64,000 nucleotides of DNA from Candidatus Wirthbacteria bacterium (GCA_903889905.1 CAISZI010000053.1:74599-138598); one strand, 5' to 3'. Positions 182-15,541 are shown, counted from the stretch's first letter. Numbers and translations: made by a program. The notes: generated by a model from the letters alone, not told the origin.

Positions 182-3100
182 TTGTTTAAAAATGGAGCCA
201 ACATGGGTAAGGGTGGAAGCGAATTCGAATCAAGACGGATCGACTTTAAGTTGACGGACATTCAACGCATGGCACTCATACTTCATGACGCTCCTGGCTT
301 ATGTGAACTTATTAGGAATCAACTAGACGGTAGAAGTCGGATTAATTTAGGCGAGTATGACCCGGATGAATCTGACGATGCTTTTTTGATGGCTACAATT
401 GGAGTGCCACGCGTCGGAAGATCTCTTTACGTTGGCGGACATGTGGAAGATATGAGGCAACTACTCAATGCAGCACAGCAGTTTCTTGACACCCAAGCGC
501 CTGTCGATGCAGATGAGTCGATGGTCGAGATAGCGCCGTCTTCAGAGCTTGTCCAAATGATTGCAGATATCCACAATGAAAGTCCTGCATTGTTTCGTAT
601 GCTAGAGTTATATGTCCAAAACGGATGGATTAATGCTACGACGGTTGGGATTCCATTGAGTGTCCAGCCTGTCTTTGAACGTTTATTGGGGGTTGATATC
701 TGGTCACTGTTTGATGGCAGCGAGCAGGATTCGGTGCGAAGTCAGCTGGCAGCCGGGATCAAGGCATATAGGGCGAGTAATGCCAATTACGACATGGGAA
801 ATATAGCTGGCGAGCCTGCCAAGTCGCCGGGGAATACACTGGATAAGATTTCGGAAGATCGTGCCGCGTTTGTTGGGTTGGCAGATAGTGACCCTGACGT
901 TGTGCTGGCAATTCTACAACATCGCAATACATCGGCAATTCCGTTAGGTCGATTAAGTCCAGATGCGATGTCCACTCTGCAAGGCTTGTTTGGGGGAAAT
1001 TTTGATCAGACTTTACCCGGTTCTGTCTGGTGGGAGAAAATCAAACTGGATTATTTGCAAGAAGTTTTAGATGGTATCGATATTGTTGGATTGCGGAAAA
1101 GTATTCGGCGGAGTAAAGCTGAGGTTGATAAAACAACAAGTCTTGAAACATACCCGAGTAGTATAAGTGCCCAGCATGGTGAAATAAATCATGACACACA
1201 AAGAGTAGATTGCCTGACAGGAATGTTTCGAACCAACAAAGCAGCCTTTTGGGCAGTCGAGCATGGTTTGAGACCAGACAATCAGAACGAAATGAATTCG
1301 GCATCGATTGATAGCAGTGTTCAGACAAATTTGGTTGACGCTTTTGGCGGGCAATTCGGTGAGGGCAAATGGAAAGGATTTGATGTTAATGCTTTGAGGC
1401 ATGCCCTTGCTGATCATCAGGTCATTGGCATGATCAATCAAGATGCAAAGCAAACTCGAGATTTAAATAATTCTGGTCAAGGATCCCGTGGGCGAGGTGC
1501 CAATGGATTGTCACTTGAACAGGTTACTGGATTTGAGCTTGATAACGCCGAGACCGCACTGGCAGTCAAAACTGCACTTGAGCAGGCCGATGTGATGGGC
1601 AATGATATTCGAATTGAAGTTGCTAAAGCACTGAGTTATGACACGAGAAAATTGCTCATGAGGATTTTTGAGGCAGATGAAGTGAAGGCACTGGCAACGG
1701 GTGGTCCTAAGCATTGGTACGCCATTACCAATGCCAACTGGCATCGTGCGGGTCTTACTCTAGGCGTGAACGAGCTATGGTTAAATGCGGTGGCCAAAAC
1801 ACGTACATGGGATCCGGACGCCAATCCGGCAGCGATGAACGGCATTGATGATCCAGACAAAATCGAAGCAATGCGCAAACACTATCTGGAATGGAAAGGC
1901 AGGAAAGCGGCTGCAGAAAGCGGAAGGAGACCACATCGTGATGATGTCAGACAGCGAAACGATCTGCGTGCACAACAGAACTCACAAATAGAGAAAACTC
2001 CTGCCTGGGTGCGAGAGAGGAATGCCGAACATATCGCCGATAGAAACCGTCGAAAATTAGATGACGTCAAAATCACATCGACTGGTGGCCTGTCCGGAAC
2101 GACGGTCAGCGACAAGTCGGGCGTCCCGGAAATGTTTGAAATGTTTTTTGATGCCCAAGGGACATATCAACAAGTTTCCCCTGAGGTATTTCAACGTGTC
2201 GTCGAAGCCAAGATGGCCCGTGCCCAGATGCGAATCAATGCCGGATGGGATAAACAAAGTCTGCAGACTGTCAAGAATGAGTTGCTTCGGACTGGTCGGC
2301 ATGATTGTGCGTCGGTTCTGGAAGCCAATTTGCTGCGGCATAAATTGAAACTGGATCCCAAGGACTATGGAATCTCAGGCAAGATGATCGTCGACAAAAA
2401 GGCAGAACAGGTGGCCGAACCAACCGCCGGTGCAGCTACTTTGTCGAGTGCAGAAATAAAACCAGCGGGTATCGATGCGAGAGGATGGGAGGAGGCAAGA
2501 GTATACTTGGACCATGATGCAAAAAAGGGAAGTTGCCATGCTTTGTTCAATTCCCAATCTGAAGCTGAGAGCGCCGCCAAAATATTGGGGATGGGAAAAG
2601 CGGTAAATGGCACGCTCTATGCTCCTTATGGGGATTATGAAAGGTTGAAAGCCGGACTTGAAGAACAATTTCGGAAAGCATCAACCCCACAAGTATTAAC
2701 AACCAGTTCTGTTGAGTCTCGACCCGCCATTACAGAGCAAGCCGAGTTGCCAAGGTTGGATATCAGTATTTGGACAGGAATTCAATATCTGACTGTGGGC
2801 CGCGGTGAATTGACAACTACGACGATTCGTTTTAAATCTGAACAGGTAGCCCTACGCGTCCAATCTGCATTGGGCATGGGCACAGTGGATGGTAGAGATG
2901 TGTTTGTGGAGATTCGTCAACGACAGTCATTGGAACAAGCCGTCGTCAAACAACGGGAAGTCGCATTGTCCCTGTCGCAAAGTGTAGCTCAAGAGTCCCC
3001 TGCTCGAACTAAAGCTGCTCGTCCCGCTTCCTCTCAGGAACAAGCAACGGACCCCAAAGCGACGACTAATAATCAGCGCGATGCGATGTTTTATTCTATG

Positions 3101-3682
3101 GTGATGCAGGGGTTGCGCGGCGAGGGGACGTTTATTTGTGACAGGGATAGCTTTGAAGCAAGGGTTTTGCGCGCCGTCGTGGCGAATTTGAACAATGAAT
3201 TTAAGGTTCCCGGTATTACTTGGAAAGTGGATGATTCTGACTTGATCATCTTCACCACGAGCCGGCAGTCTGCTCTGTTTGAGCAATTTGAACGATTTTT
3301 AACACAAGAACTCAATGCGCAAGCGACGGCACAAAGTCATGAATCAGCTACTGCAGCCAGTCCAGTATCTGGTGTTGATCAACGCGCCAGCGAACGGCAA
3401 CAAAGAATGGACAACCACCAGGACACAACGCTCTGTGCGATGGTCACGGATGGCTTGGCAAACAAAAACCGTTTTAGCTGTGCTGCGGGCTCAGAAGTTG
3501 CCCGGGCCATTAAAAAGGCTTACCAAAAAGCTACCGCAGACTTTCGGCTTGGTCTGCATGTGATGGAAGAGGGAGAAGATATAGTGATTGAGAGTATAAG
3601 TGGGCAGATTGAGCAAATCGAAATTTTTGCAGCGTACCTTTTGGAGGAAATTACTGTGCTAAGGTTGGCAGGTGAGAAATAG
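182..3682 (+). CDS. Large hypothetical protein (1166 aa), acidic, no TM segment and no motif I can recognise
   Basis: 3.5-kb uninterrupted ORF. The antisense ORFs are all short. A rho-independent terminator follows immediately. No catalytic motifs recognised by eye. Confidence 0.65.
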   Translation: MFKNGANMGKGGSEFESRRIDFKLTDIQRMALILHDAPGLCELIRNQLDGRSRINLGEYDPDESDDAFLMATIGVPRVGRSLYVGGHVEDMRQLLNAAQQFLDTQAPVDADESMVEIAPSSELVQMIADIHNESPALFRMLELYVQNGWINATTVGIPLSVQPVFERLLGVDIWSLFDGSEQDSVRSQLAAGIKAYRASNANYDMGNIAGEPAKSPGNTLDKISEDRAAFVGLADSDPDVVLAILQHRNTSAIPLGRLSPDAMSTLQGLFGGNFDQTLPGSVWWEKIKLDYLQEVLDGIDIVGLRKSIRRSKAEVDKTTSLETYPSSISAQHGEINHDTQRVDCLTGMFRTNKAAFWAVEHGLRPDNQNEMNSASIDSSVQTNLVDAFGGQFGEGKWKGFDVNALRHALADHQVIGMINQDAKQTRDLNNSGQGSRGRGANGLSLEQVTGFELDNAETALAVKTALEQADVMGNDIRIEVAKALSYDTRKLLMRIFEADEVKALATGGPKHWYAITNANWHRAGLTLGVNELWLNAVAKTRTWDPDANPAAMNGIDDPDKIEAMRKHYLEWKGRKAAAESGRRPHRDDVRQRNDLRAQQNSQIEKTPAWVRERNAEHIADRNRRKLDDVKITSTGGLSGTTVSDKSGVPEMFEMFFDAQGTYQQVSPEVFQRVVEAKMARAQMRINAGWDKQSLQTVKNELLRTGRHDCASVLEANLLRHKLKLDPKDYGISGKMIVDKKAEQVAEPTAGAATLSSAEIKPAGIDARGWEEARVYLDHDAKKGSCHALFNSQSEAESAAKILGMGKAVNGTLYAPYGDYERLKAGLEEQFRKASTPQVLTTSSVESRPAITEQAELPRLDISIWTGIQYLTVGRGELTTTTIRFKSEQVALRVQSALGMGTVDGRDVFVEIRQRQSLEQAVVKQREVALSLSQSVAQESPARTKAARPASSQEQATDPKATTNNQRDAMFYSMVMQGLRGEGTFICDRDSFEARVLRAVVANLNNEFKVPGITWKVDDSDLIIFTTSRQSALFEQFERFLTQELNAQATAQSHESATAASPVSGVDQRASERQQRMDNHQDTTLCAMVTDGLANKNRFSCAAGSEVARAIKKAYQKATADFRLGLHVMEEGEDIVIESISGQIEQIEIFAAYLLEEITVLRLAGEK

Positions 3683-3700
3683 GCCGGCGAAATGGATATC

Positions 3701-3729
3701 AAAAAACCACCTATGGGGGTGGTTTTTTT
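3701..3729 (+). terminator. Rho-independent terminator of the 1166-aa gene
   Basis: A-run, stem ccacc/ggtgg with loop tatggg, then T7 (aaaaaaccacctatgggggtggttttttt). Confidence 0.75.
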
Positions 3730-3860
3730 GAGGTTGATGATTTGATGGCGGAGCCAGCCAAAGCAGAGAATGCGGGTAGGGGAGCCCTACTTCGTTTTTT
3801 GTCTTACCGGCGGAGCCATCCGTAGCTCGTCGCTTCATAGCCGACCCTCTCGAGCGAAGG

Positions 3861-3882
3861 ATGGTGGAGTTGAGGGGAGTCG
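3861..3882. repeat. 22-bp direct repeat (atggtggagttgaggggagtcg) identical to 13398..13419, i.e. the 3' end of tRNA-Ala. Distal att-like boundary of the island
   Basis: Exact 22/22 match to the antisense of the tRNA-Ala 3' acceptor/T-arm region. The flanking sequence does not fold as a tRNA. Confidence 0.8.
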
Positions 3883-4291
3883 TATACAAGTCCCTGCGAA
3901 GCGTTCTGACGGTGAGCAGCTGAACGCAGTAATGACGATGTTGCTACCTACTGATACCGCAGGCTCCCTTCCGATTCGCTGACGAATCTACAGGGATCGA
4001 AATGGATAAGTACCTCTAAACGCGATGACTTGTTAAGATGTACTTTATAAGTTTCACTAAGTTCGAAGACTCACTAAGTTCAGCTTTATGGTGGATATAG
4101 GGTAACAATACTTGAACTTTTTAGCAAGATGATGACTAGGTGGCAGCAGGTAAACCGTTGGAATGGCTTCATGACGGACTTTCTGGAGCACAACAGGGGA
4201 ACAGAAGGGCTTGTGATAGATAAGCTGCGTTTATAGAAGGGGGGCGGTGTGCTATGGTGGGCAGGGTACTCACATACTCAAAGGGGGCAAT

Positions 4292-4600
4292 ATGGACAAA
4301 TCAGACAAGGAAGAACTGAAAGCGGTAGTAGCGTACATCTATGCTCTGGTGAACAAGGTCGAAAGCAGTGATTCTCTTAGCAAAAGCCCGAGAATCAAGA
4401 AAGATATGGCAAATTTGGCAATTGCTTTACGCCATTTCGTTGATAGTGTCGAGAACGATAAAGCTAAACAGGCAGAAACAGGGGAGCAGTCAGAGCAAGG
4501 GCAACCTGCCAAGCTGAAGCCAGGTCAGGCGTATGATGAATGGGGAGAAGTGGTTCAACTATCATTAGCCCACAAGCAGACAGGTATTACGAACAAATAA
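4292..4600 (+). CDS. Small hypothetical protein (102 aa) inside the island
   Basis: ORF with RBS aaggggg 7 nt upstream of the ATG at 4292. The track ORF started at 4247. Confidence 0.5.
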   Translation: MDKSDKEELKAVVAYIYALVNKVESSDSLSKSPRIKKDMANLAIALRHFVDSVENDKAKQAETGEQSEQGQPAKLKPGQAYDEWGEVVQLSLAHKQTGITNK

Positions 4601-5122
4601 GCCCGAAGGCGCATGAACTTTAGGCAATGTTTAGTATTATTAACTATCTTTGAATGTTAGTAATTATTAACTATCTGTTGCAGGGATGAGGCACTAGGGG
4701 TGGGTGCTATTTCTGCGACAGCATTCTCTTTGCCCTATAGGCTCTTTTTTTGTATTAGTGCATTAGGCAAGAAAGGGGAAGGACATACGAGCAAAGGTTG
4801 GATGGGGGGTAGCATGTTCTGACGAGAAATGTCAAGGTTTTGCCCGCTACTCCCGCTGTGGAGGATACCTTTCTGTGTAATTAGGAGGAATAACGGATTT
4901 GTCCTCTTAATTGGGTATCAATATCGAGATGGGAGCAAAAAAACCGCAGTATTCGATTCCCTTGTTAGAATTGAGTAAGAGGAATAACCATACAGGACGC
5001 TCTCCGCGAAACATTGTTTATAATTATGAACTTGTCTGTTTGCTTAGTACAAAACAACTAAACTATAATGACTGAGTGTTTATGCCTGTAGCGTCTTGTA
5101 ATGCAATGAAAAAGGATGGAAT

Positions 5123-7027
5123 ATGACCACTTTTCCCAAAATGGACGGTACTTCATATAGCCCACAACAGGAGCTATTTGAGCTATTGCAGGCTCGTTTC
5201 CCCGATGTATTCACCGAGGGGAAAATAGACCCTATCAGGCTCAAGCGGTCTTTGGGTGAACAGGTCAATGTAGATAGCGAGCGCTATGGTTTGAATTGGG
5301 CAGGTAAAAGCGATTGTTACCGCCATATTCAGGAATCAACTACAGCGACCCTCAAACCAGTGCGAAAAGAGTCTGTAGACTTCGACACTACCCAGAACTT
5401 GTTCATCGAGGGAGACAATCTCGAAGTGCTCAAAGTGTTGCAGAAGTCCTACTATGGCAAGGTCAAAATGATTTATATTGACCCGCCATACAACACAGGA
5501 AGTGATAGTTTTATCTATCCAGACAGGTTCCAAGAGTCCCAAGACGATTATCTAAAGAGAATCGGTGAAAAAGACGAATCGGGTAATTTGATGCGAGATG
5601 GTATGTTTCAGAAAAATAGCCGAGATAATGGGCATTACCATTCCAATTGGCTATCAATGATGTACCCACGATTGTTTTTGGCGAGGAATCTATTGCGGGA
5701 AGATGGGGTTATCTTTGTCAGTATTGATAATAATGAAGTCCATAATTTACGGTTGGTAATGGATGAAATATTCGGGGCAGAGAATTTTATAGACTGCATT
5801 ATATGGAAAAAAAGGTATGGCGGTGGTTCAAAGGAAAAATATCTAGTGTCTTTACATGAATACATTTTATTTTATTCCAAAGATGTTAATCATTTAGACC
5901 CACTGTTTGTTCACCAAGACGAAGCAAATATCGCAAGATATTACAAATACAAAGATGAAAAATTTGAAACGAGAGGTCCCTATCGTACTCACCCATTGGA
6001 AGCGACAAAAAGCATGGGGGATAGGAAGAATTTGATTTATCCCATACCAGCACCAGACAAAACGTATATTAACCCTCAGCGTCAATGGCTTTGGAAGAAA
6101 GAAAGGGTAGAACAAGCATTAAAGAATAATGAGCTTGAGTTTATCAAAACCGACAAAGGATACTCAGTTCATACAAAACAGTATTGGCGTGATGAATCCG
6201 GTGAAGTAAGACAGAGTAAAATGTTTTCAATTATCGACAATGTTTATACTCAATCTGGTACAAATGAAATAATCGAGCTATTTGGGAATGCTCAAATTTT
6301 TTCTTTCCCAAAACCTACAGCACTTCTTAAACCCTTGATTCAGCTAACAACAGATTCGGTACAAGAGGAGATAGTTTTAGATTTTTTTGCCGGTTCAGGA
6401 ACCACTGCCCATGCGATTATTGCCCAGAACTATGAGGATGGTGGTAATAGAAAATACATTCTAGTGCAGCTTCCAGAGGCTTGCGCAGACGATAGCGAAG
6501 CATTTAAAAAAGGCTATAAAACCATTGCAGATGTTGCAAAAGAACGTATCAGGAGGGTTGGAAAAGAAATAGTAAAAAAGAAACAATCCAAACTAAATCT
6601 TGATGGAAAAAAGATTGATGTTGGATTCAAAGTGCTTGAATTGGAAGATAGTAATTTCAAGGTCTGGCGAGGGGATGTAGAGTCAGCTGAAGTTTTACTT
6701 GAGCAAATGGAAGCCTTTGTCGATAACACGAATCCTGATGCTATCAAAGAAAGCGTGCTTTATGAACTTATCTTGAAAAGTGGGCTAGATTTGAACGTGG
6801 CTGTTGAGAAAAGGGATATAGGGGGTAAGGCTGTATTTGTGTTGAATGGGGGTAAATTGGCGGTCTGCTTAGAAGATGAGCTCAACCAGGCGGTTGTCGA
6901 TGCTGTTGTCTCTATCAAGCCAGAAAAAGTGCTGTGCTTGGATAAGTCATTTGGTGGTAATGACCAGCTCAAGACTAATGCCATGCTTCAGATGGAACAG
7001 GCAAAGATAGACTTCAAGGTGGTGTAG
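5123..7027 (+). CDS. mod: Type III restriction-modification Mod subunit (beta-class N6-adenine DNA methyltransferase)
   Basis: Motif IV IYIDPPYN lies N-terminal to motif I LDFFAGSGTT. This is the beta-class order typical of Type III Mod. Size 634 aa. Confidence 0.85.
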   Translation: MTTFPKMDGTSYSPQQELFELLQARFPDVFTEGKIDPIRLKRSLGEQVNVDSERYGLNWAGKSDCYRHIQESTTATLKPVRKESVDFDTTQNLFIEGDNLEVLKVLQKSYYGKVKMIYIDPPYNTGSDSFIYPDRFQESQDDYLKRIGEKDESGNLMRDGMFQKNSRDNGHYHSNWLSMMYPRLFLARNLLREDGVIFVSIDNNEVHNLRLVMDEIFGAENFIDCIIWKKRYGGGSKEKYLVSLHEYILFYSKDVNHLDPLFVHQDEANIARYYKYKDEKFETRGPYRTHPLEATKSMGDRKNLIYPIPAPDKTYINPQRQWLWKKERVEQALKNNELEFIKTDKGYSVHTKQYWRDESGEVRQSKMFSIIDNVYTQSGTNEIIELFGNAQIFSFPKPTALLKPLIQLTTDSVQEEIVLDFFAGSGTTAHAIIAQNYEDGGNRKYILVQLPEACADDSEAFKKGYKTIADVAKERIRRVGKEIVKKKQSKLNLDGKKIDVGFKVLELEDSNFKVWRGDVESAEVLLEQMEAFVDNTNPDAIKESVLYELILKSGLDLNVAVEKRDIGGKAVFVLNGGKLAVCLEDELNQAVVDAVVSIKPEKVLCLDKSFGGNDQLKTNAMLQMEQAKIDFKVV

Positions 7028-7030
7028 TAT

Positions 7031-7816
7031 ATGCAAAAGAGTCCATACCTACAAAACTACTATCGTGAAATTGAATTTTCACTATGGAATCGAAAGATAA
7101 ACCATGCAGTCGCTTCTATCACAAGTCTAAAACGAGACAAGAGCAAGAAAAAGTATTTTATTGAGCTGTACTCAACATATCTTCAGCTGATTGAGATTTT
7201 TTGTATCAATGTGTTCGTAATCACTGAGAACGATTTGTGGAGCAACGTTTTTTTGAGTAACCGTCAACTAGCTGAAAAGATACAAAACAGATTTTATCAG
7301 GCTGAAAGTAGTCGTTTTGACAAGAAGTTCAGTACTTTTTTCCTAGAACATTGGGTATTTGGCGTTGAAGATAAGACTGCTATCCGAGACTTTGCTGGGA
7401 AAATAGAGTTGTATTTGGATATTATCAAAGAGAGCCTTTTTGATTATTCCGAAGATAAACATTTTCTGAATTCATACAAACACGGCTTTCGAGTTCAAGC
7501 GGGAGGGAAGAGTACTTTTGGGATAGGAATAGGTACATCTCAAGAAGTTCATAAATTAGGTGATTTCAACGCAAGTGTGACGTATTTTCACAAAAAAGAG
7601 GCGGTGATTTTCGAAAGGCAGATTTGTTTCAACTGGGAACGGATTTACCAAAAAACTTCATTTTTGTTGAATATGCTCCAAAACATCAAAACAGTGTATA
7701 CAGCAAAGTCGAAACAAGTAATAGACATCAATACATTGTTCATTGTTGACTCACAACAGTTTAACCAATTCAGTGGGTATTTTCGTACTAACACCCCAAT
7801 TTTCGAGATAAAATAG
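7031..7816 (+). CDS. Uncharacterised 261-aa protein inserted between mod and res
   Basis: ORF starts 4 nt after the mod stop and ends 1 nt before the res start. This suggests translational coupling in one operon. AT-richer than its neighbours. No known motif recognised. Confidence 0.6.
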   Translation: MQKSPYLQNYYREIEFSLWNRKINHAVASITSLKRDKSKKKYFIELYSTYLQLIEIFCINVFVITENDLWSNVFLSNRQLAEKIQNRFYQAESSRFDKKFSTFFLEHWVFGVEDKTAIRDFAGKIELYLDIIKESLFDYSEDKHFLNSYKHGFRVQAGGKSTFGIGIGTSQEVHKLGDFNASVTYFHKKEAVIFERQICFNWERIYQKTSFLLNMLQNIKTVYTAKSKQVIDINTLFIVDSQQFNQFSGYFRTNTPIFEIK

Positions 7817-7817
7817 A

Positions 7818-10520
7818 GTGGTAATGAAACTTCAATTCGATGCTAGCCAGCAATATCAGCTGGACGCCATCAATTCCATAGTAGACATTTTCAAAGGGCA
7901 GCCTTTGAGCAAGGGTGTTTTTGAGCTTGAGGTAAAGCGTCCTGACGACGAGCTTCAGCTGGGTGGCGAGTTTGTTGTGGGCAATAAGCTCATGCTCGAG
8001 CCGGATACCATCATTGCAAATCTTCATGAAATACAAACTCGGAATGAACTGACAATATCCGAAGTGGCAACTGGAGCAACATTTCCTGCAAGTTTTCCCT
8101 TGGATTTCAGCCGTCGTTTACAATATGGAATGAACTTTTCCATAGAAATGGAAACAGGAACAGGTAAAACCTATGTGTATCTGCGAACTATCCACGAGCT
8201 GTACCAGAAGTATGGTTTCAAAAAGTTTGTTATCGTCGTGCCTAGCATTGCCATCAGGGAAGGAGTGCTCAAGAATCTAGAGATAACAGCCGAGCACTTT
8301 GCCATGCTGTATGAAAACCCAGCACTTAATTTTGAGGTCTATGACCCCAAAAAGAGGAATCTGCTCAAAACCTTTGCTACCAACAACACCTTGCAGATTC
8401 TAGTGATAAACATTGATTCTTTTGCCAAATACAGCGACGAGAAAGCTGGCAAAAACATCATTTACCAAAACAGCGACTGGGGTATCCCGATTGAATACCT
8501 CAAGGCTGTCAGCCCTATCGTCATCGTCGATGAACCGCAAAACATGGAAACCGATATTCGCAAAAAGGCTATAGAGAATCTCAACCCGCTTTGCACTCTG
8601 CGATATTCGGCAACACACAAAAATCTGTACAACGTGGTGTATACCCTAGACCCTGTCAAAGCCTATGATTTGGGCTTGGTCAAAAAGATAGAGGTGGACT
8701 CCGTCATAACCGAGGATAACCACAATGCTGCCCTGATAGAAGTGGTTTCTTTTCAAACCACTTCAAAGTCAGTTAGTGCCAAGCTCAAAATTGAAGTTGT
8801 AGATTCGGAAAGCGTAGGGAAAAAAGCGGTAACAGTAAGGCTCGGTGACGACTTGTACCGACTTTCCAACCAGAGGGAAGTGTACAAAGATGGCTTTATA
8901 GTCAATGACATAGGCTTTCAGGCTAAATCCATTACGTTCAGCAATGGTCTAGTGTTGTATGAAGGGCAGTCTCAAGGGGGCATGACCGATGCGATAATGA
9001 AGTATCAGATTCGGAAAACCATCGAGAATCATGTTGAGAAGGAAGCCAAACTCAGAGGCAAGGGAATCAAAGTCTTGTCTCTATTCTTCATCGACCGTGT
9101 AGCGAACTATCGAGAATATACGGAGGGGAAGCCCAACAAAGGCAAGTTTGCCCTCTGGTTCGAGGAACTATACAAAGAAATAGCCCGAAACCCCAAATAT
9201 CAGGAATTGATGGTTCATTCTGCTGATTCGGTTCATAACGGATACTTTTCTCAAGACAAACAGGGTGGCTGGAAGGATACCAAGGGAACAACCCAGGCTG
9301 ATGATGATACCTACGCCATAATCATGAAAGAAAAAGAAAAACTGCTTTCGATGGAAGAACCTTTAAAGTTTATCTTTTCCCATTCCGCACTCAAAGAAGG
9401 CTGGGACAACCCTAATGTTTTTCAAATCTGTACCCTGAGAGAAATTACTTCAGAGGGGGAAAAGAGACAAACCATAGGACGTGGCTTGAGGCTTTCTGTA
9501 AATCAGGACGGAAAGCGGGTTTTTGATGAGAACATCAACATTCTTACCGTCATTGCCAATGATAGCTATGAGGACTTTGCCAAGTCATTGCAGACCGAAA
9601 TTGAGAGAGAATGTGGAGTCAGCTTTTCAGGCAGGGTAAGGGATAAGCGGAAAAGAAAGCAGATGCAATTGAGAAAGGGCTATCAGCTTGATGAAAATTT
9701 CATCAGCCTTTGGGATAGAATCAAGGTCAAAACCAGATTCCAGGTCAGCTATGATTCCAATGAGTTGATTCGACTGGTTGCCAACGAACTAAAGACGGCA
9801 GCGATAACTGCACCCAAAATCAAAAATATCAAGGTCAAGGTTGACCTAACCAGGCATGGTATCGATACAGGGGTAGTAACCGTCAATGAAAGGACGGAAA
9901 AGTTCAAGGGAAGCGTTCCTGACGTGCTAGGTGACATCCAAAACAAGACGAGGCTGACCAAGGACACGATTCTCAAGATTATCAAGGCTTCGGGTAGGCT
10001 GGCAGACATTTTCATCAACCCGCAGCAATTCATGGACATAACCTCCCATATCATCAACTCAACACTGACCAAGATGATGGTTGATGGTGTGAAGTACGAA
10101 AAAATAGCCAGTGAAGTATGGGAAATGCAACTATTCGAGAATCAGGAGCTGGAAAGCTATCTGGAGAATCTAGTAGAGGTCAAAAAGGTAGAGAAGACCC
10201 TATATAACTATGTACCAGTAGACCATCAAGTAGAGTCTGAGTTTGCCAAAGACCTGGATTCCAGAGAAGACGTGAAGTTCTATTTCAAGCTGCCCTCATG
10301 GTTCACTATCCAAACGCCACTAGGGACATACAATCCTGACTGGGCAATTGTGTTTGAAAAGGATAAAAGGGTTTATTTCGTGGCTGAAACCAAGTCAAAA
10401 GGACAAGAGCTCCGCCCATCAGAACAAATGAAGATTGACTGCGGGCGTAAGCACTTTGAGGAATTTGAAGATGTGACCTATATGGCACCTATCACAAAAG
10501 TCAGCGATATTGTGATTTGA
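7818..10520 (+). CDS. res: Type III restriction enzyme Res subunit (SF2 helicase plus C-terminal PD-(D/E)xK endonuclease)
   Basis: Walker A METGTGKTY. Motif II VIVDEPQN. C-terminal PDWAIV...FVAETK nuclease motif. The probable true start is the ATG at 7824. Confidence 0.85.
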   Translation: MVMKLQFDASQQYQLDAINSIVDIFKGQPLSKGVFELEVKRPDDELQLGGEFVVGNKLMLEPDTIIANLHEIQTRNELTISEVATGATFPASFPLDFSRRLQYGMNFSIEMETGTGKTYVYLRTIHELYQKYGFKKFVIVVPSIAIREGVLKNLEITAEHFAMLYENPALNFEVYDPKKRNLLKTFATNNTLQILVINIDSFAKYSDEKAGKNIIYQNSDWGIPIEYLKAVSPIVIVDEPQNMETDIRKKAIENLNPLCTLRYSATHKNLYNVVYTLDPVKAYDLGLVKKIEVDSVITEDNHNAALIEVVSFQTTSKSVSAKLKIEVVDSESVGKKAVTVRLGDDLYRLSNQREVYKDGFIVNDIGFQAKSITFSNGLVLYEGQSQGGMTDAIMKYQIRKTIENHVEKEAKLRGKGIKVLSLFFIDRVANYREYTEGKPNKGKFALWFEELYKEIARNPKYQELMVHSADSVHNGYFSQDKQGGWKDTKGTTQADDDTYAIIMKEKEKLLSMEEPLKFIFSHSALKEGWDNPNVFQICTLREITSEGEKRQTIGRGLRLSVNQDGKRVFDENINILTVIANDSYEDFAKSLQTEIERECGVSFSGRVRDKRKRKQMQLRKGYQLDENFISLWDRIKVKTRFQVSYDSNELIRLVANELKTAAITAPKIKNIKVKVDLTRHGIDTGVVTVNERTEKFKGSVPDVLGDIQNKTRLTKDTILKIIKASGRLADIFINPQQFMDITSHIINSTLTKMMVDGVKYEKIASEVWEMQLFENQELESYLENLVEVKKVEKTLYNYVPVDHQVESEFAKDLDSREDVKFYFKLPSWFTIQTPLGTYNPDWAIVFEKDKRVYFVAETKSKGQELRPSEQMKIDCGRKHFEEFEDVTYMAPITKVSDIVI

Positions 10521-10559
10521 ACAAAGTTCATAATGATTAACTTTTAGAGATAGAACTAT

Positions 10560-11498
10560 ATGAAAACAACGCTGGCACGACTAAATCGAGTAGAATTGCG
10601 TGAAGTATGGGAGCATGAAGCTCTTGATTTTACTCGCTGGCTTGCTCAGCAGGACAATCTTGATGCTTTAAGCGAAGAAATCGGTGTAGACATCAAATTG
10701 ATAAAAACAGAAGCGAACGTAGGAAAGTACAGCGTAGATATACTTGCCGAAGAAGAAGCATCAGGGAGAAAAATAATCATTGAAAATCAACTTGAGGATA
10801 CAAACCACGACCATCTTGGGAAAATCATTACTTATGCGTCTGGGTACGATGCGGAAATCATTATTTGGATAGTTCGTGATGTTCGTGATGAGCATCAGAA
10901 AGCAATTGAATGGTTAAACGAGCATACTGATGAAAATATAAGCTTTTTCCTTATTAAGATTGAACTTTGGCAGATACAAGGTTCTCCTCCCGCACCAAAA
11001 TTTGAAATCATGGTTAGCCCTAACGAATGGGCAAAAGCTATCAAAACTAGCCCGACAAATGGCGAGCTTACGAATACTAAACTTCAACAACTTGAATTCT
11101 GGAACAAATTTAAAAATTTTGTTCGAGAAAATGATGCCAGCATACGGCTTCAAACGCCACGTCCTCAACACTGGTACGATGTGAGCATGGGAAGCTCGGA
11201 AGCACATATTGCTCTTACAGTTAATACTCGCGAGAATCTTATCGGCTGCGAATTATACATAAGCCGAAACAAAGAACTATATAAATACCTTCTCGAGCGG
11301 AAAGATGAAATTGAACAGAACATCGGAGAGCATGCCGAATGGGTAGATGCAGCAGTTGCTTCAAGGATTAAACATTCCAAAACGGTATCCAGCGTGTTTC
11401 AACAAACTGAAGCAGCAGAATACTTCAAGTGGTTATACGACAAGACAGTTTTGTTTCAGAATGTATTTAGAAAGTACATTCAGGAATTCAAACAGTAG
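10560..11498 (+). CDS. DUF4268-like protein, putative PD-(D/E)xK nuclease-fold protein commonly found next to RM systems
   Basis: Pattern DILAEEE...IIIENQLEDTNHDHLGKIITY resembles the DUF4268 family as I remember it. Family assignment is from memory and not verified. Confidence 0.5.
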   Translation: MKTTLARLNRVELREVWEHEALDFTRWLAQQDNLDALSEEIGVDIKLIKTEANVGKYSVDILAEEEASGRKIIIENQLEDTNHDHLGKIITYASGYDAEIIIWIVRDVRDEHQKAIEWLNEHTDENISFFLIKIELWQIQGSPPAPKFEIMVSPNEWAKAIKTSPTNGELTNTKLQQLEFWNKFKNFVRENDASIRLQTPRPQHWYDVSMGSSEAHIALTVNTRENLIGCELYISRNKELYKYLLERKDEIEQNIGEHAEWVDAAVASRIKHSKTVSSVFQQTEAAEYFKWLYDKTVLFQNVFRKYIQEFKQ

Positions 11499-11770
11499 CA
11501 CCTAAAGGCTTTTCTGTAGAAATCTTATGGAATCAGGTTAGGCTGTCCGTATGTCTGGTATGTAGATGTGCCCTTTATGCTCTCTGAGAGCCGTTCTAAT
11601 ACCATTCACCACGGCTCGTCGAGGAGAAATATCAGAACCATCGCGATGCTGCGTGTCGTCCTGTACCATCCTGAAATGTATTGATAAACGTTGAACGATG
11701 ACCAAGATACGCCATCAGAGGTATAATGCTGTTGTCAGCAAGATAGCTCTTAAAGTGGGGGTCTATACCC

Positions 11771-13456
11771 ATGCCAAGTCAGAAACCCAACCTTCTTGAA
11801 ATACTACGAGAACAACAAGGGCATAATGCAATAAAGAAGGACGAGAAGGACTTCAAGTACATAATCTATGCTCGTAAATCGACAGACAGCAAGGAGCATC
11901 AAGAAAAGTCACTGCCTGACCAAGTAAAAGCCTGTAAACTGCTTGCTGATAGCAAAGAATTGCATTACTTGAAGTCAGAAATTATTGAAGAGAAGGAATC
12001 AGCAAGGGAGCCAGATATACGCCCGATGTTTCGACGTATGATGGATGACATCAAATCTGGCAAGCATGATGGCATCATTACATGGCATCCTGACAGGCTA
12101 GCACGCAATATGAAGGAGGCTGGTGAAATTATCGACCTGCTAGACAAGAAAATCATCCAAGACATCAAATTTGCAAGTGTAACCTTTGACAACGATTCAA
12201 ACGGCAAGATGATGCTAGGTATTTCTTTTGTCCTGTCGAAACAGTACTCCGACAAGCTAAGCACTGACATCAGGCGAGGGATTGAGAACAGGGTAGCAGA
12301 GGGGCAGTACCTGAGCAGAACCAAGCATGGATACTACAAGGACAGGTATAATTTTCTACGCCCTGATGGTAATAACTTTGCTTTGATGAAGCAGGCTTGG
12401 CAGATGCGGTTGAATGGGCAGAAAATTGAGGATATAGCTGCCTTTTTGAATAAACAAGGGTATCAGCAGGCAGGCGAGGCTGGTAAAACTCATACACCCT
12501 TTACATGGAATGTAAAGAAACTGGCAGAGCGCTTTCATGACACTATCTATGCTGGTGTGTTGAAATACGGAAAGGATTCAGTCAGCCTGATAGAGGAATA
12601 CGACTTTATTCCGATGGTTACTGAAGAAGAATTTTTAGCGATAAACAAGACGCAATATATAGGTAATCCCTTCCGGTCTCGGTATAAGGTGGGTTCCAGG
12701 AAACAGACGAGAGCTGATTTTCTTCGGAGGATGGTGTTTTGCAGCTCCTGCAAGAAACCGATGGCGACAGGCATTACTTCAAAGAAAGACCAAAAGGGCG
12801 ACGAGACAAATTATTTCTATTTCAGATGCGACAACAAGAAGTGCAAGCAAAAGGGTAAATCAGTCCGTGGTAAAGTCCTTGAAGATTTTGTCATTGATTT
12901 TTTGGACAAGAACAAGATAGCTTCAAAATCTATCTATGAAACGTACGTGCGAGATATGGAGAATCATCTACGCCAAGAGCAACAAGCAATTCTTGGGCAG
13001 GAGAAAACACTAGCCAAGAAGCTTGTACAGGCTAAGGAGCTTATGAAAAAGACCAAGGAGCTCATGCTAGACAACAAAGATGCTAGCCTAAGGGAAGAGC
13101 TTACTGGTGACTACAAACAGTATCAAGGGGAGGCTGAGGGCTTGGATGATGAGCTACAGGCTATCCAGAGGGTGAAAAAAGAGGGGAAAGATGAAATAAT
13201 GGACTACAAAACGTTTCTTGAACTTATCGAGAAAGTGCCCGAGATACTTAGACAAACGACCACTTTGAAGGGGAAGGATAGTATCATCAGAGAAATCTTC
13301 ATGAACTTTACAGTAGACCGCAGGAAAGTCTTGTCGTATAAGCTAAAACCGCCCTTTGATGGGTTCATCAAGAGCGGTTTCAACCAGACTTTCACCTATG
13401 GTGGAGTTGAGGGGAGTCGAACCCCTGACCTCTGCAATGCGAATGCAGCGCTCTAG
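11771..13456 (+). CDS. Large serine recombinase (resolvase N-terminal domain plus zinc-ribbon and coiled-coil C-terminal domain)
   Basis: YIIYARKSTDSKEHQ...DRLARN catalytic resolvase motifs. C-terminal Cys cluster CSSCKK...RCDNKKCKQKG. The ORF 3' end overlaps the antisense strand of tRNA-Ala. Confidence 0.85.
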   Translation: MPSQKPNLLEILREQQGHNAIKKDEKDFKYIIYARKSTDSKEHQEKSLPDQVKACKLLADSKELHYLKSEIIEEKESAREPDIRPMFRRMMDDIKSGKHDGIITWHPDRLARNMKEAGEIIDLLDKKIIQDIKFASVTFDNDSNGKMMLGISFVLSKQYSDKLSTDIRRGIENRVAEGQYLSRTKHGYYKDRYNFLRPDGNNFALMKQAWQMRLNGQKIEDIAAFLNKQGYQQAGEAGKTHTPFTWNVKKLAERFHDTIYAGVLKYGKDSVSLIEEYDFIPMVTEEEFLAINKTQYIGNPFRSRYKVGSRKQTRADFLRRMVFCSSCKKPMATGITSKKDQKGDETNYFYFRCDNKKCKQKGKSVRGKVLEDFVIDFLDKNKIASKSIYETYVRDMENHLRQEQQAILGQEKTLAKKLVQAKELMKKTKELMLDNKDASLREELTGDYKQYQGEAEGLDDELQAIQRVKKEGKDEIMDYKTFLELIEKVPEILRQTTTLKGKDSIIREIFMNFTVDRRKVLSYKLKPPFDGFIKSGFNQTFTYGGVEGSRTPDLCNANAAL

Positions 13457-13475
13457 CCAACTGAGCTACAACCCC
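13399..13475 (-). tRNA. tRNA-Ala(CGC), 77 nt including CCA
   Basis: Manual fold gives acceptor GGGGTTG/CAACTCC with a G3:U70 pair, D-arm GCTC/GAGC, anticodon loop TTCGCAT, T-arm AGGGG-TTCGACT-CCCCT, and discriminator A followed by CCA. Confidence 0.85.
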
Positions 13476-13654
13476 ATGAAGAAGCAGTGAGCATGGAGCA
13501 AGGAGTTATGAGAAGAAAGGTGCGAAGTTGGCTAGGGCCAACTGTCTAGGATCCCCCGAAGTGGAGACGCCTCGTCGAAACGGAGTGGGGAAGCTACAAC
13601 CCCATGAAGAAGCAGTGAGCATGGAGCAAGGAGTTATGAGAAGAAAGGTGCGAA
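13464..13654. repeat. Two perfect 63-bp direct repeats (13464..13526 and 13592..13654). Each contains the first 12 nt of tRNA-Ala plus 51 nt of its upstream region
   Basis: Exact duplication read directly. Spacing is 128 bp. Confidence 0.8.
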
Positions 13655-13835
13655 TGTGGCGGGCCAATTAAATGTACAGGTCGCAGTATATAAAGATTTG
13701 GGTTAGCCGTCCAGAGAAAGTAGTCATTCTGAGTGTAAACTTCTGAGGTGGAGCGAAGAATCCTTACTGCTAACGAACCAAATGGTGGGTTTGTACTGTC
13801 AGTGAGGATCCTTCACAAAGCTTCAGGATGACGGA

Positions 13836-14195
13836 TTAGTTTACCTCTTGGTCTGTTTCGACTTTTTTCTTGCGGGTCGTCTTCCACAGTTCTTCGAGCT
13901 GGTAGGTCTGACGCATGGCGGGTTGGAAGACGTGGACGATGACTTCACCGTAGTCCAAGATTACCCATTCGCCGGTCGCGATGCCTTCGGAGCGGAGCGG
14001 CGAGACTTTCTTTTTTTTCAGCCCCTCCACGATGTTATCGGCAATGGCCTGAACCTGGCGGTCCGACGTTCCTTCGCAGATGACAAAGTAGTCGGTCAGG
14101 CTGCTTTTTTTGGAAATATTGAGAGAGAGGATGTTTTCGGCTTTTTTGTCGTCAGCGAGGCCGATAATCAGTTCAACGAGTTTGGCGGTGGTCAT
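13836..14195 (-). CDS. rsfS: Ribosome silencing factor RsfS (Iojap)
   Basis: 119 aa with typical RsfS sequence (DYFVICEGTSDRQVQAIAD...VILDYGEVIVHVF). Confidence 0.85.
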   Translation of the reverse strand: MTTAKLVELIIGLADDKKAENILSLNISKKSSLTDYFVICEGTSDRQVQAIADNIVEGLKKKKVSPLRSEGIATGEWVILDYGEVIVHVFQPAMRQTYQLEELWKTTRKKKVETDQEVN

Positions 14196-14245: not shown

Positions 14246-15541
14246 TTACTCCCAATCAAAGGTCACATCGGCGATGGTCACCTGGTCACCAAACTCAATG
14301 CCCTGTTTGATAAGTTCCGGGTAGACACCGGCGGCTTTGAGGCGGTCGTGCATCCAGTGCAGGGCTTCGGGATTTTGCATGGGCGTTGTCAGCACGATCA
14401 TTTCGGGCCGTTTGCCATAAACGTAAAAATGGTGGCCGTCTTTCTGGACTTCAAAGTGTTTCGGATCTTCCAGCAGCGGATTGATAATGTGTTCGCTGCC
14501 AGTGATTTTGTCAAGTTTTTTGGGGATGGCTCTGAGGATGTCATTGATGCTTTGAAGCAATTGATCAATGTTGGTATGGGCGGCGGCCGAAATAAACTGC
14601 AGGGGTTCTGGCGTAAATTTGGCAATGCTGTTTTGGAGGATTTTGCTGGCCTGGATTTTGGCCAGATCCGCGGGCATGATAGCGTCGATTTTGTTGACCA
14701 CCACGATTTGCGGTTTGTCCAAAATGGCGGGATTGAATTCCTTGAGTTCGCGCATGATGGTGACGAAGTCGGATTTGAGTACTTTGGGATCGAGCCGACT
14801 GCCATCGAGGATATGAATCAGCACACGGGTGCGTTCAATGTGGCGCAGGAATTGGTGCCCGAGTCCTTTGCCTTGGCTTGCGCCTTCGATCAGCCCGGGC
14901 ATGTCTGCCACCACAAAATCCTGCTCCCGGAATTTGACGACGCCAAGGTTGGGGATAATGGTGGTAAAAGGATAGTCAGCGATTTTGGGGCGGGCATTGG
15001 AAATGGTGGCAATCAGCGTGGACTTGCCGGCATTGGGCAGACCGATCAGGCCTACATCCGCCACCAGTTTGAGCTCCAGCTCGACTTCAGCTTCTTCCGA
15101 GGGTTCACCCAGTTGGGCAAATTTGGGGGCCTGGTATTTTGAGGTTTTGAGCATCAGGTTGCCAATGCCACCCCGGCCGCCCTTGAGCGCGATGAACTCT
15201 TCGCCATCTTCGGTAAAATCAAAGACAGGCACAAATTCCTCATTAACGGCCATTTTGACCACGGTTCCCACTGGAACTGCGATGAAGGTATCTGAGCCGT
15301 TTTTGCCATGCATGTTCTGTTTGAGGCCCATGCCGCCATCTTCGGCTTTGAACATTTTGTCGTATTTGAACTGGATCAGGGTGTTGATCGCGGCGTTCGC
15401 CTTGAAAACGATGTTGCCGCCCTGGCCGCCGCTACCGCCATCCGGACCACCCATGGGCTCGAATTTGGCACGACGAAAGGATTGTGAACCATTGCCGCCT
15501 TTGCCAGCCGTAATCGTGATATAAGCCTGGTCATAAAACAT
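14246..15541 (-). CDS. obg: GTPase Obg/CgtA
   Basis: Gly-rich N-terminal Obg fold (GGNGSQSF...GGPDGGSGGQGG). G1 box GLIGLPNAGKST and G3 box DMPGLIEGA. Confidence 0.9.
   Translation of the reverse strand: MFYDQAYITITAGKGGNGSQSFRRAKFEPMGGPDGGSGGQGGNIVFKANAAINTLIQFKYDKMFKAEDGGMGLKQNMHGKNGSDTFIAVPVGTVVKMAVNEEFVPVFDFTEDGEEFIALKGGRGGIGNLMLKTSKYQAPKFAQLGEPSEEAEVELELKLVADVGLIGLPNAGKSTLIATISNARPKIADYPFTTIIPNLGVVKFREQDFVVADMPGLIEGASQGKGLGHQFLRHIERTRVLIHILDGSRLDPKVLKSDFVTIMRELKEFNPAILDKPQIVVVNKIDAIMPADLAKIQASKILQNSIAKFTPEPLQFISAAAHTNIDQLLQSINDILRAIPKKLDKITGSEHIINPLLEDPKHFEVQKDGHHFYVYGKRPEMIVLTTPMQNPEALHWMHDRLKAAGVYPELIKQGIEFGDQVTIADVTFDWE

Follow-up and report, generated by a model that had tools for sequence, protein, structure and literature searches.

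A segment of the 64,000-nucleotide stretch of Candidatus Wirthbacteria DNA that we analyzed (here called the window), from 3861 to 13419, is very probably a mobile element that was put into the 3' end of a tRNA-Ala(CGC) gene by its own large serine recombinase (LSR), with a likely cut at a GT dinucleotide. We infer the exact crossover, the present-day activity, and the excision ability of the element. Judged from sequence, the recombinase is a member of a large clade, mostly from Patescibacteria, of which we found no description in the literature searched. The features of the segment are collected in Table 1.

Table 1. Features of the element and its borders in the window
Feature	Position	Strand	Evidence or remark
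attL core, orphan 22-bp copy of tRNA-Ala 3' end	3861..3882		Exact repeat
Likely crossover dinucleotide GT in attL	3864..3865	+	attL/attR pair comparison; partner 13401-13402 in attR
P' arm of element	3866..3982	+	First 17 bp identical to tRNA acceptor/T-stem
Small ORF	4292..4600	+	102 aa from ATG; 117 aa from GTG 4247
Mod, Type III RM methyltransferase	5123..7027	+	Pfam N6_N4_Mtase 1e-37; PADLOC MTase_III 2.9e-198
261-aa gene between mod and res	7031..7816	+	HEPN-like helical N-terminal part, beta-rich C-terminal part
Res, Type III RM restriction subunit	7818..10520	+	Pfam ResIII and RE_endonuc; PADLOC REase_III 3.5e-293
DUF4268 protein, PADLOC PDC-S11 candidate defense gene	10560..11498	+	Pfam DUF4268 1.3e-28; PADLOC PDC-S11 4.9e-120
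Sigma-70-like promoter match upstream of LSR gene	11698..11727	+	ATGACC-18-TATAAT, 10/12; consensus match only
LSR, 561 aa as integrated	11771..13456	+	Resolvase, Recombinase, Zn_ribbon_recom domains
attR core, repeat copy forming 3' end of intact tRNA	13398..13419		Exact repeat
tRNA-Ala(CGC), integration target, attB at its 3' end	13399..13475	-	ARAGORN; Rfam tRNA 69.4 bits

The borders are marked by a perfect 22-bp repeat, ATGGTGGAGTTGAGGGGAGTCG, present in exactly two copies in the 64-kb window, where it is labeled family D4 in the repeat listing. There are 9,515 bp between the copies, and the distance from repeat to repeat (3861-13419) is 9,537 bp. Such a repeat is not expected by chance (0 in 100 shuffles). 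No third copy was found in the window, even with 3 mismatches, and with only two copies the sequence does not represent a dispersed repeat family, the alternative that the earlier note had named as fatal to its reading. The right copy consists of CCA, the discriminator, the 3' strand of the acceptor stem, the T stem, part of the T loop, and one flanking base; it belongs to an intact tRNA gene in which the G3:U70 pair can be read directly. The left copy has host DNA on its left and the element on its right. The earlier note had placed both copies, 9.5 kb apart, correctly, but its wording could be taken to put the intact tRNA at 3861, when the gene actually lies at the right border. A hairpin followed by a T-run, read in the sequence near 3696-3724, is probably the original terminator of the tRNA and now lies 9.5 kb from it; no minus-strand terminator match was found within the recombinase gene.

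The block is compositionally foreign. Its GC content is 41.8%, against 49.9% in the rest of the window and 47.9 to 52.1% in host windows of the same size, and its tetranucleotide distance is threefold the highest host value. Two relatives (L097 and L099) keep the host backbone Response_reg-Obg-RsfS-tRNA-Ala(CGC), and neither carries recombinase or RM genes 3' of the tRNA. The earlier note had proposed to look for an empty tRNA-Ala site in related genomes; the only such "empty sites" available are in these two distant relatives, with Obg proteins 54 to 57% identical. No close relative of the source genome was found in the collections searched and no same-species empty site in public contigs, nor did the tRNA 3' half or the attP junction, the latter expected in a circular form, have a match in the scanned metagenome and viral contigs. 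With the unique perfect repeat, the foreign composition, and the absence of the block from the two relatives, the earlier claim of an integrative island at the tRNA-Ala 3' end stands.

Domain searches bore out the gene content described before (a Type III RM operon with an embedded gene, a DUF4268 protein, a small ORF, and a recombinase), and the PADLOC matches to MTase_III, REase_III, and PDC-S11 agree with its description as a defense island. Mod and Res are encoded together on one strand, as in Type III RM systems; Res also matches NCBIfam PRK15483 (2.2e-98), under the cut-off of that model. The 261-aa gene between them, putatively HEPN-like, is separated from its neighbors by gaps of 3 nt and 1 nt. 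The PDC-S11 model PDLC04911 is matched over its full length (residues 1-309 of 312), which makes the DUF4268 protein a candidate for a defense function. The predicted genes support an anti-phage or defense role for the cargo as a whole, with a Type III RM system carrying an embedded HEPN-like gene beside PDC-S11/DUF4268, and the RM-embedded gene is a second, smaller lead for defense-system biology. No replication, transfer, or virion genes occur in the element. The small ORF has no Pfam, NCBIfam, PADLOC, or meaningful PHROG match; its position alone makes it a candidate for a regulator or directionality factor. No recognizable directionality factor was found among the small ORFs of the island with Pfam, PHROGs, PADLOC, or NCBIfam. 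The recombination directionality factors (RDFs) on which excision by serine integrases depends are diverse small proteins, often missed by profile searches. In the relatives from Patescibacteria, unlike in the island of the window, an HTH_17 or TerS-like ORF adjoins the recombinase.

By its domains and predicted fold, the island recombinase is a canonical LSR. The catalytic domain (PF00239, 1.3e-25, residues 31-180) contains the serine nucleophile within a YxRKS motif. A family alignment of 40 sequences shows no variation at Y33, R35, K36, and S37, nor at C324, C327, C353, and C358. The C-terminal domains PF07508 (4.7e-07) and PF13408 (4.1e-07) both score over their gathering thresholds. An AlphaFold model contains catalytic, recombinase, and zinc-ribbon domains and a coiled coil, predicted as long helices at 386-434 and 438-471, with a disordered tail at 534-561. 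Its best Foldseek matches in the PDB are full-length serine integrase-att complexes (9y66, 9dxh, 9rah, and 4kis; E values of 1e-19 to 1e-10), with 12 to 20% identity in the structural alignments. Scores against the NCBIfam XisF and CcrB models are far under the cut-offs. No tyrosine recombinase ORF or remnant was found in 3883-13397. The earlier note was right to see here a large serine recombinase and not a tyrosine integrase, and its remark that such an enzyme is unusual at a tRNA 3' end is in line with Mageeney et al. 2020 (PMC7192596).

What the earlier note overlooked is that the LSR ORF passes through the repeat and spans the att site. The frame reads on into the tRNA gene, which is encoded on the opposite strand, and ends there at a TAG stop (13454-13456), so that the last 19 codons and the stop overlap that gene. 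In the computed sequence of an excised circle, the frame continues into the P' arm, where it reads IQVPAKRSDGEQLNAVMTMLLPTDTAGSLPIR from 3883 and stops at TGA 3980-3982; an ORF at 3770-3982 shares this frame. After the residues ...GGVEGSR, the tail would thus be 33 aa long in the free form (reconstructed circle), and it is 11 aa long as integrated.

We propose that attP of the circular form would lie inside the 3' end of the recombinase gene and consist of a P arm ending in ...cagactttcacctatg, then GT, and then a P' arm beginning with ggagttgaggggagtcgtatacaag... The recombinase would pair this site with an attB made of the tRNA trailer, GT, and the acceptor/T-arm of the tRNA. A 2-bp staggered cut, typical of serine recombinases, would most likely fall at the GT, after which the half-sites would be swapped. 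The tRNA body would remain host-derived and intact, with its 3' trailer alone replaced. Because the ORF has no stop before the crossover, the protein of the free form (582 aa) would end in sequence encoded by P' DNA, and that of the integrated form (561 aa) in sequence antisense to the tRNA.

A survey of 80 homologous loci from other genomes, drawn from a one-genome-per-species collection and almost all from Patescibacteria, shows that this layout is a family property. The homologue ORF terminates inside a convergent tRNA or tmRNA gene in 69 of the 80 loci, and five more, at contig ends or masked, have tRNA-like tails. The targets in the 69 loci are tRNAs for Pro (35), Leu (8), Glu (7), Val (6), Gly (4), and others; the overlap is also found in L003, L005, L008 (tmRNA), and two viral contigs (L090 and L091). 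In the window and in all 69 overlap loci, no stop codon precedes the crossover in the ORF, leaving attP inside the integrase gene. Of the 70 tRNA-overlap loci, 57 have the discriminator at a third codon position, and 66 have GT as the dinucleotide there. The nearest neighbor in recombinase similarity uses the same tRNA type in 44 of 55 cases, and target identity thus tracks recombinase similarity. No relative is more than about 47 to 49% identical to the LSR of the window, which alone among the sampled homologues uses tRNA-Ala.

Comparison of the junctions points to the GT, the complement of tRNA A73-C74, as the likely crossover, since it is the only never-palindromic dinucleotide common to all attL/attR pairs of the related elements. 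The identity between attL and attR stretches to the right of GT in L077, L013, L066, and the window, stretches to the left in L063 and L079, and is limited to GTCG in L002, L003, and L005. The long 22-bp core is atypical for the clade, in which many relatives share only GT or GTCG (2-4 bp). Of 12 tRNA arms, 11 have the T-loop GAAC at +17, and 6 of 12 element arms and 4 of 6 attP-like loci have a GAAC at +22. In serine integrases, the motif of the zinc-ribbon domain is shifted by 5 bp between attB and attP (Rutherford et al. 2013, PMC3783163), and the 5-bp GAAC offset of many element arms appears to match this geometry. The host-side B arm, the tRNA trailer, varies between hosts, which is odd for an attB that binds a dimer.

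For the same element and recombinase, the crossover might instead have been in the T loop, where the repeat has its right end (around 13417-13419), as it is in tyrosine-integrase islands of the T-loop class. In that case the final 20 nt of the tRNA would come from the element, and the displaced host copy would be the orphan at 3861-3882. The 17 bp of P'/B' identity in the window would fit this as well; in the window, L077, L013, and L066 the identity block stops immediately short of the T-loop GAAC, the T arm is a natural inverted repeat able to seat a dimer, and the window's own P' arm has no GAAC at +22. We nevertheless consider a T-loop crossover improbable. In L002, L003, L005, L063, L079, L028, and L057, the tRNA-side identity does not extend past GT(CG), which excludes a T-loop crossover for them. 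All members of the family, the window included, have the same reading frame and the same placement of GT with respect to the tRNA, and a conserved enzyme is expected to keep the spacing between its cut and its recognition motifs. A less remote alternative, though still unlikely in our view, is that the LSR did insert the island but that the island is now an immobile remnant, its directionality factor lost or its LSR silenced by antisense read-through from the tRNA. The lack of an RDF-like ORF in the island and of a circular junction or empty site in public contigs would fit, as would the distance of the tRNA from its probable terminator, with no terminator match within the LSR gene to stop read-through. 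Against decay stand repeat copies that are still identical (22/22), an intact LSR ORF with all family-invariant residues, a composition that has not been ameliorated, and the ease with which profile searches miss RDFs.

Two further readings deny the LSR its role. Islands at tRNA 3' ends with long direct repeats classically come from tyrosine integrases, and use of t(m)RNA genes by serine integrases was unreported in 2020 (PMC7192596); a different enzyme, such as a tyrosine integrase since lost, could then have delivered the island, with the LSR as passenger cargo or an unrelated resolvase or invertase. This is highly improbable: besides the lack of any tyrosine recombinase remnant between the repeats, the LSR ORF physically spans the junction, and homologues, in which this reading would predict no LSR-tRNA overlap, show it in most loci, mostly in the same frame and at many tRNAs. 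The other reading, an ancestral gene block beside the tRNA with a repeat arisen by chance or slippage, can appeal to the absence of a same-species empty site from the available data, but the repeat has no expected chance matches, GC drops by 8 points with an outlying tetranucleotide profile, and relatives with the same backbone lack the block. We strongly disfavor it and give it almost no credence.

Targeting of tRNA genes has been regarded as characteristic of tyrosine integrases. For large serine integrases, use of a t(m)RNA gene "has not been reported previously" according to the TIGER survey, which adds that such use would have to be proven (PMC7192596). Read together at the sequence level, the window and 69 of the 80 homologous loci show a coherent serine-integrase lineage targeting t(m)RNA genes, whose probable cut position, mostly fixed frame relation, and att geometry agree with the structural model of serine integrases. 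Insertion at the tRNA 3' end by our preferred route, through the element's own LSR, may be how small cargo or defense islands enter genomes of Patescibacteria and their relatives. The clade also offers a natural series of related serine integrases that differ in target, with targets that are predictable and highly conserved (Pro, Leu, Glu, Val, Gly, and Ala tRNAs and tmRNA), useful for the study and re-engineering of integrase specificity. More tentatively, and with slightly more doubt than conviction, we suggest that the island belongs to a very large LSR clade, centered on Patescibacteria, that uses the near-universal acceptor/T-arm of t(m)RNA genes as its B' half-site and cuts at A73-C74, leaving the tRNA undamaged, and that attP lies inside the integrase gene, so that the C-terminal tail, and possibly expression through antisense tRNA read-through, would report whether the element is free or integrated. 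If so, switching between tRNA species would be a natural, evolvable retargeting of a serine integrase. It also raises the question of whether tail swap or antisense tRNA transcription acts as a switch for an integrase gene that spans its own attP.

The island LSR shares its domain order and predicted fold with the phiC31, Bxb1, A118/LI, SPbeta SprA, and TP901-1 integrases. As in LSRs of phages and ICEs, the zinc ribbon has an inserted coiled coil and the att sites are short, and in many relatives of the island LSR the distal motif likewise lies 5 bp further out in attP than in attB. These phage and ICE enzymes are known to insert into protein-coding genes or intergenic DNA and to have attP next to int, outside the gene; the island LSR, in contrast, targets a tRNA/tmRNA 3' end and its ORF crosses the crossover point. 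The Ccr recombinases of SCCmec, also LSRs, place a cargo island at the very 3' end of a conserved housekeeping gene and leave that gene active. Cargo insertion at the 3' end of a conserved gene is shared, but their target is the protein gene rlmH, not a tRNA, and the island LSR has weak similarity to the CcrA/B/C models (69 bits against a cut-off of 900). The small serine recombinases of the phiRSM type use a tRNA gene 3' end as attB. This group is mentioned in PMC7192596. They resemble our case in placing a serine recombinase at a tRNA 3' end; however, they are resolvase-like "S-Core" proteins without Recombinase and zinc-ribbon domains, whereas the island protein is a full LSR. Tycheposons are small elements beside tRNA genes with adaptive or defense cargo, and in the parts of their description available to us a large serine recombinase is given for 27 of 937, with no mention there of the att geometry or ORF-spanning attP of the island (Hackl et al., bioRxiv 10.1101/2020.12.28.424599). 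As described in those parts, they differ from the island in being from marine cyanobacteria, mostly driven by tyrosine recombinases, and in many cases equipped with replication genes. Tyrosine-integrase islands at tRNA/tmRNA genes (P4-like, Islander, and the sublocation classes of Williams 2002) share with the island an intact tRNA with an orphan 3' repeat, an integrase gene beside the tRNA, foreign composition, and cargo. As in Islander, the intact tRNA gene lies at one end of the island and a direct repeat, the displaced 3' fragment, at the opposite end, but its sole recombinase is of the serine family, and because it has no tyrosine integrase ORF it falls outside the classical tRNA-island class despite the like architecture. 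It also differs in its likely 2-bp site at A73-C74, in place of a 7-bp overlap in the anticodon or T loop, and in that no long identity block is required, as relatives of the island LSR share 2-4 bp. Myxococcus phage Mx8 Int and Sulfolobus SSV1 Int are tyrosine recombinases with attP inside their own gene. There, integration changes or splits the integrase ORF, so that the C termini differ between the free and integrated forms; the island has the same layout, with the crossover within the integrase ORF, but not the tyrosine chemistry, and the swap would be limited to a short tail with predicted disorder.

The 22-mer ATGGTGGAGTTGAGGGGAGTCG has two exact copies in the window, and no extra copy was found across these 64 kb with up to three mismatches tolerated, none being expected from shuffled sequence. 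Because an intact tRNA-Ala(CGC) was placed over the right copy by ARAGORN and Rfam, this copy is the antisense tRNA 3′ end. It is the complement of the CCA end, the discriminator, the acceptor 3′ strand, the T stem, and five T-loop bases, with one flanking base added, while the left copy is an orphan. The earlier note had located both copies correctly, although its wording was ambiguous as to which one belongs to the intact tRNA, and its alternative of a dispersed repeat family found no support in the window.

Features of the island, its att sites, and the adjoining host backbone (window positions)
Feature	Position	Strand	Description
22-bp repeat, left copy (attL core)	3861-3882		
Small ORF	4247/4292-4600	+	No family match
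Mod	5123-7027	+	PADLOC Type III pair with Res, 2.9e-198
261-aa ORF	7031-7816	+	Between Mod and Res
Res	7818-10520	+	PADLOC Type III pair with Mod, 3.5e-293
DUF4268 protein	10560-11498	+	PADLOC candidate defence gene PDC-S11, 4.9e-120
Recombinase, 561 aa	11771-13456	+	Resolvase, Recombinase, and Zn_ribbon_recom domains
22-bp repeat, right copy (attR core)	13398-13419		
tRNA-Ala(CGC), intact	13399-13475	-	ARAGORN and Rfam
RsfS	13836-14195	-	Followed by tRNA-Ala(CGC)
Obg	14246-15541	-	
Response_reg	15941-16381	-	
Putative attB junction (island-free)			Reconstructed, ttcatagccgaccctctcgagcgaaggatgGTggagttgaggggagtcgaacccctgacctc
Putative attP junction (circular form)			Reconstructed, agagcggtttcaaccagactttcacctatgGTggagttgaggggagtcgtatacaagtccct

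Between the repeats lie 9,515 bp, in which every gene is on the plus strand. The gene content read earlier from the sequence, a Type III RM operon with an embedded gene, a DUF4268 protein, a small ORF, and a recombinase, was found again, with PADLOC recognizing both the Type III system and PDC-S11. The recombinase had been called a large serine recombinase (LSR) rather than a tyrosine integrase; it carries all three LSR domains, and a tyrosine recombinase ORF was sought in the island and is absent. When we ran the GC comparison that the earlier note had proposed, the island was at 41.8% versus 49.9% in the rest of the window and 47.9 to 52.1% in host windows of the same length. Its tetranucleotide distance to the host profile is 0.030 versus a host maximum of 0.0099.

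The 261-aa protein belongs to a small HEPN-like family with 35 homologues, located inside or beside RM operons, Type III in the window and Type I in the comparison locus L100 (homologues at L100 10001-10786 and L101 10001-10831), and it may act as an accessory to RM or as an abortive-infection module. Short tandem repeats at 4049-4081 and 4626-4676 (16 nt and 24 nt, two units each) flank the small ORF in the non-coding left part, and a regulator or directionality factor may bind there.

The nearest relatives by Obg share 54 to 60% identity, and the next tier, at 44 to 48%, mixes Gracilibacteria, Peregrinibacteria, and Abawacabacteria with Chloroflexota. Two comparison loci have the same backbone, Response_reg-Obg-RsfS-tRNA-Ala(CGC) in L097 and the same order with two genes between RsfS and the tRNA in L099, and their tRNA-Ala is nearly identical to that of the window. 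The tRNA is followed on its 3′ side by housekeeping genes in L097 and by methyltransferases and ORFs without family matches in L099, with no recombinase or RM genes there in either. By gene order, both appear to be empty sites, at large evolutionary distance only. No close relative came from an Obg scan of the genome collection or from a recombinase scan of viral contigs. Neither the tRNA 3′ half nor the reconstructed attP junction had an exact match in the metagenome and viral contigs scanned, which yielded neither a same-species empty site nor a circular form.

Several other features of the window were noted. A 69-nt direct repeat (13464-13532 and 13592-13660, 97% identical, spacing 128, with a 59-nt spacer at 13533-13591) duplicates 12 nt at the very 5′ end of tRNA-Ala together with 57 nt upstream; it could reflect a duplicated promoter, or a footprint left by another element. 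A 1,166-aa ORF without any Pfam or NCBIfam match flanks the island at 182-3682. A low-GC stretch at 18500-21100 (about 0.42 versus 0.50) contains a gene for a radical-SAM/B12-binding protein (18633-20270) and an ORF of 272 aa without Pfam match, with tRNA-Arg(CCT) downstream at 21463-21537.

Homologues of the recombinase at 40 to 49% identity are abundant and labelled mostly Patescibacteria. In all loci fetched first, the 3′ end of the homologue overlaps a convergent tRNA-Pro, tRNA-Val, or tmRNA, and almost throughout a 40-sequence alignment the C termini are antisense-tRNA translations (SR-GxxN* or ...RTxDL..N.AL*). A profile scan in which each species was represented by one genome gave at least 600 pattern matches, 535 of them confirmed by tblastn. 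Among the best 80 of these at least 535 confirmed loci, 69 have an ORF that stops within a convergent tRNA or tmRNA; five more are cut by contig ends or masked and have the same tRNA-like tails, and six have no tRNA. With the window included (n = 70), the targets are Pro (35), Leu (8), Glu (7), Val (6), Gly (4), Asp, Arg, and Met (2 each), and tmRNA, Tyr, Ile, and Ala (1 each), Ala being that of the window alone. The dinucleotide opposite C74-A73 is GT in 66 of these 70 loci, and the third codon base is the discriminator in 57. In 44 of 55 comparisons, a recombinase and its nearest neighbour have the same tRNA type as target, which would be expected of an enzyme-determined specificity. Two IMG/VR contigs have the same LSR-tRNA arrangement, with tRNA-Gly.

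Other elements of the family are 3 to 11 kb long with unrelated small cargoes, including MmeI-type RM with SocA/Panacea, a diversity-generating retroelement, an SMC-like ATPase, and SNase and NYN nucleases; tblastn of the island cargo proteins against all fetched loci found no common cargo. A small HTH_17 or TerS-like ORF, which may be a directionality factor, often adjoins the recombinase on the opposite strand in these elements, and none was found among the island ORFs. A tmRNA-integrated element has a diversity-generating-retroelement-like pair of reverse transcriptase and bAvd (L008 6404-7800). The six homologues without tRNA end in attP-like P-GT-P′ junctions, P and P′ being the element-side arms (L033 11634, L048 11574, L049 9280, L058 11642, L067 11519, and L083 11616). 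L033, L048, L067, and L083 are inside contigs of 78 to 320 kb, L058 lies at a contig end (90 kb), and the contig of L049 is 10.6 kb long; possible explanations are free-form copies, nesting within other elements, and insertion at non-tRNA targets. The window itself has an unoccupied tRNA-Pro(TGG) at 45802-45877 (...catttGGTCGGGGCGACAGGATTCGAACC...), of the target type commonest in the family.

A first search found no long direct repeats in the homologue loci, and the idea it raised, that the window repeat is unrelated to the recombinase, was dropped once blastn of the left ends of the homologue loci L002, L003, and L005 gave a GTCG core. By pairwise blastn and alignment, these elements of 3.6 to 4.2 kb share left ends starting GTCGAGA... 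and right junctions of the form ...CTCTA / GTCGGGG(tRNA), and therefore attL and attR are identical over GTCG only. Further attL/attR pairs came from a repeat search in the 80 loci. In L077, L013, L066, and likewise the window, identity begins at GT and extends 15 to 17 bp into the acceptor and T stem, the 22-bp repeat being 3 + 2 + 17 around GT; in L063 and L079 it extends leftwards and finishes at GTCG. One pair, in L032, was rejected as a second tRNA-Pro gene. Every pair shares GT and the next two bases, which leaves three candidate dinucleotides. A serine integrase needs an asymmetric crossover, and GT is the only one that stays non-palindromic whichever the tRNA, with TA, CG, and GC seen at the other two positions; we therefore infer from these alignments that the crossover is at GT, at 13401-13402 and 3864-3865.

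Counting outward from GT, the universal T-loop GAAC is at +17 to +20 in 11 of 12 tRNA arms. A GAAC is seen at +22 to +25 in four of the six tRNA-less loci and in 6 of the 12 element arms, one more of which has it at +23. This is exactly the 5-bp shift proposed by Rutherford et al. (PMC3783163), in which the zinc-ribbon-domain motif of serine integrases is 5 bp further out in attP than in attB. The P′ arm of the window itself lacks GAAC at +22, and the P′ arms of the window, L077, L013, and L066 follow the tRNA sequence as far as the point of the expected GAAC and diverge there. For this subgroup, these two features leave a minority alternative, in which the same recombinase crosses over in the T loop, at the right end of the 22-bp repeat; we regard it as improbable.

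Two candidate binding sites were discarded: TTTCG at -11 to -7 of the P arm, for weak conservation over 66 loci confounded by coding constraint, and a symmetric P-arm partner of the +22 GAAC, whose centre 2 bp left of GT is incompatible with the L003, L002, and L077 junctions. A remnant resembling a tRNA-Pro 3′ end (L002, about 7350-7375) lies some 45 bp beyond the left end of that element, and over about 30 bp the host-side attL arms of L063 (233-262) and L079 (7561-7590) resemble the P arm next to the recombinase, which suggests that remnants are left of insertions, earlier or in tandem, at the same tRNA.

The junction falls within the recombinase gene. The ORF has no stop before the repeat (...FTY-GGVEGS-RTPDLCNANAAL) and ends with TAG at 13454-13456, 58 nt into the tRNA gene on the opposite strand. 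On paper circularization, its frame continues past the repeat through 3883-3982 (IQVPAKRSDGEQLNAVMTMLLPTDTAGSLPIR) to a stop, and therefore the free form would have 582 aa and the integrated form 561 aa. An AlphaFold model (40 homologues) shows canonical catalytic and recombinase domains, a zinc ribbon, and a coiled coil, with the tRNA-encoded tail (residues 534-561) disordered. Its best PDB matches include serine integrase-att complexes of full length, as well as PhiC31 integrase and the C-terminal domain of LI integrase. Phmmer with the 73 residues upstream of the crossover matched only C-terminal parts of the same recombinase family. The free-form extension is kept in L002, L003, and L005, with about equal numbers of synonymous and non-synonymous changes, and might be a real domain; no homologue of the window's own extension was found.

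The evidence best supports an integrative cargo element driven by its serine integrase. The attB would be the 3′ end of tRNA-Ala, and the attP would be embedded in the integrase gene. Integration would spare the tRNA body and swap its trailer, parting the tRNA from its apparent original terminator, a hairpin and T-run read directly in the sequence near 3696-3724. Because no minus-strand terminator match was found within the recombinase gene, tRNA read-through antisense to the recombinase could occur, which is speculation. The repeat-bounded gene block noted at tRNA-Ala is real, and the repeat, the intact tRNA, the composition, and the relatives' backbone support its interpretation as an integrative island, leaving the notion of no insertion at all the least credible of the alternatives. 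Delivery by a tyrosine integrase that has since been lost is scarcely more plausible; the recombinase present is of the serine type. The island may instead be an immobilised remnant, a state compatible with the proposed LSR origin, and this is unlikely but the most serious of the rivals.

We found no literature on tRNA-targeting large serine integrases in Patescibacteria, or on the GT crossover or ORF-spanning attP of this clade, in a search that left most subscription journals outside its scope. Of the 297 S-Int islands of Mageeney et al. 2020 (PMC7192596), 14 were at t(m)RNA genes, a use they described as unreported before and needing proof, and Hackl et al. give a large serine recombinase for 27 of 937 tRNA-linked elements. 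Judged by its domains and modelled fold, the recombinase falls within both the sequence and the structural definitions of a large serine recombinase. The island is a new member of a lineage of LSRs whose targets are the 3′ ends of tRNA and tmRNA genes and whose attP lies within the ORF of the integrase. It has the architecture of classical tRNA islands but lacks their defining tyrosine integrase. In Mx8 and SSV1, attP is likewise inside int, but the recombinase family differs, and phiRSM also uses a serine recombinase at a tRNA, whereas its enzyme is a small resolvase-like protein.
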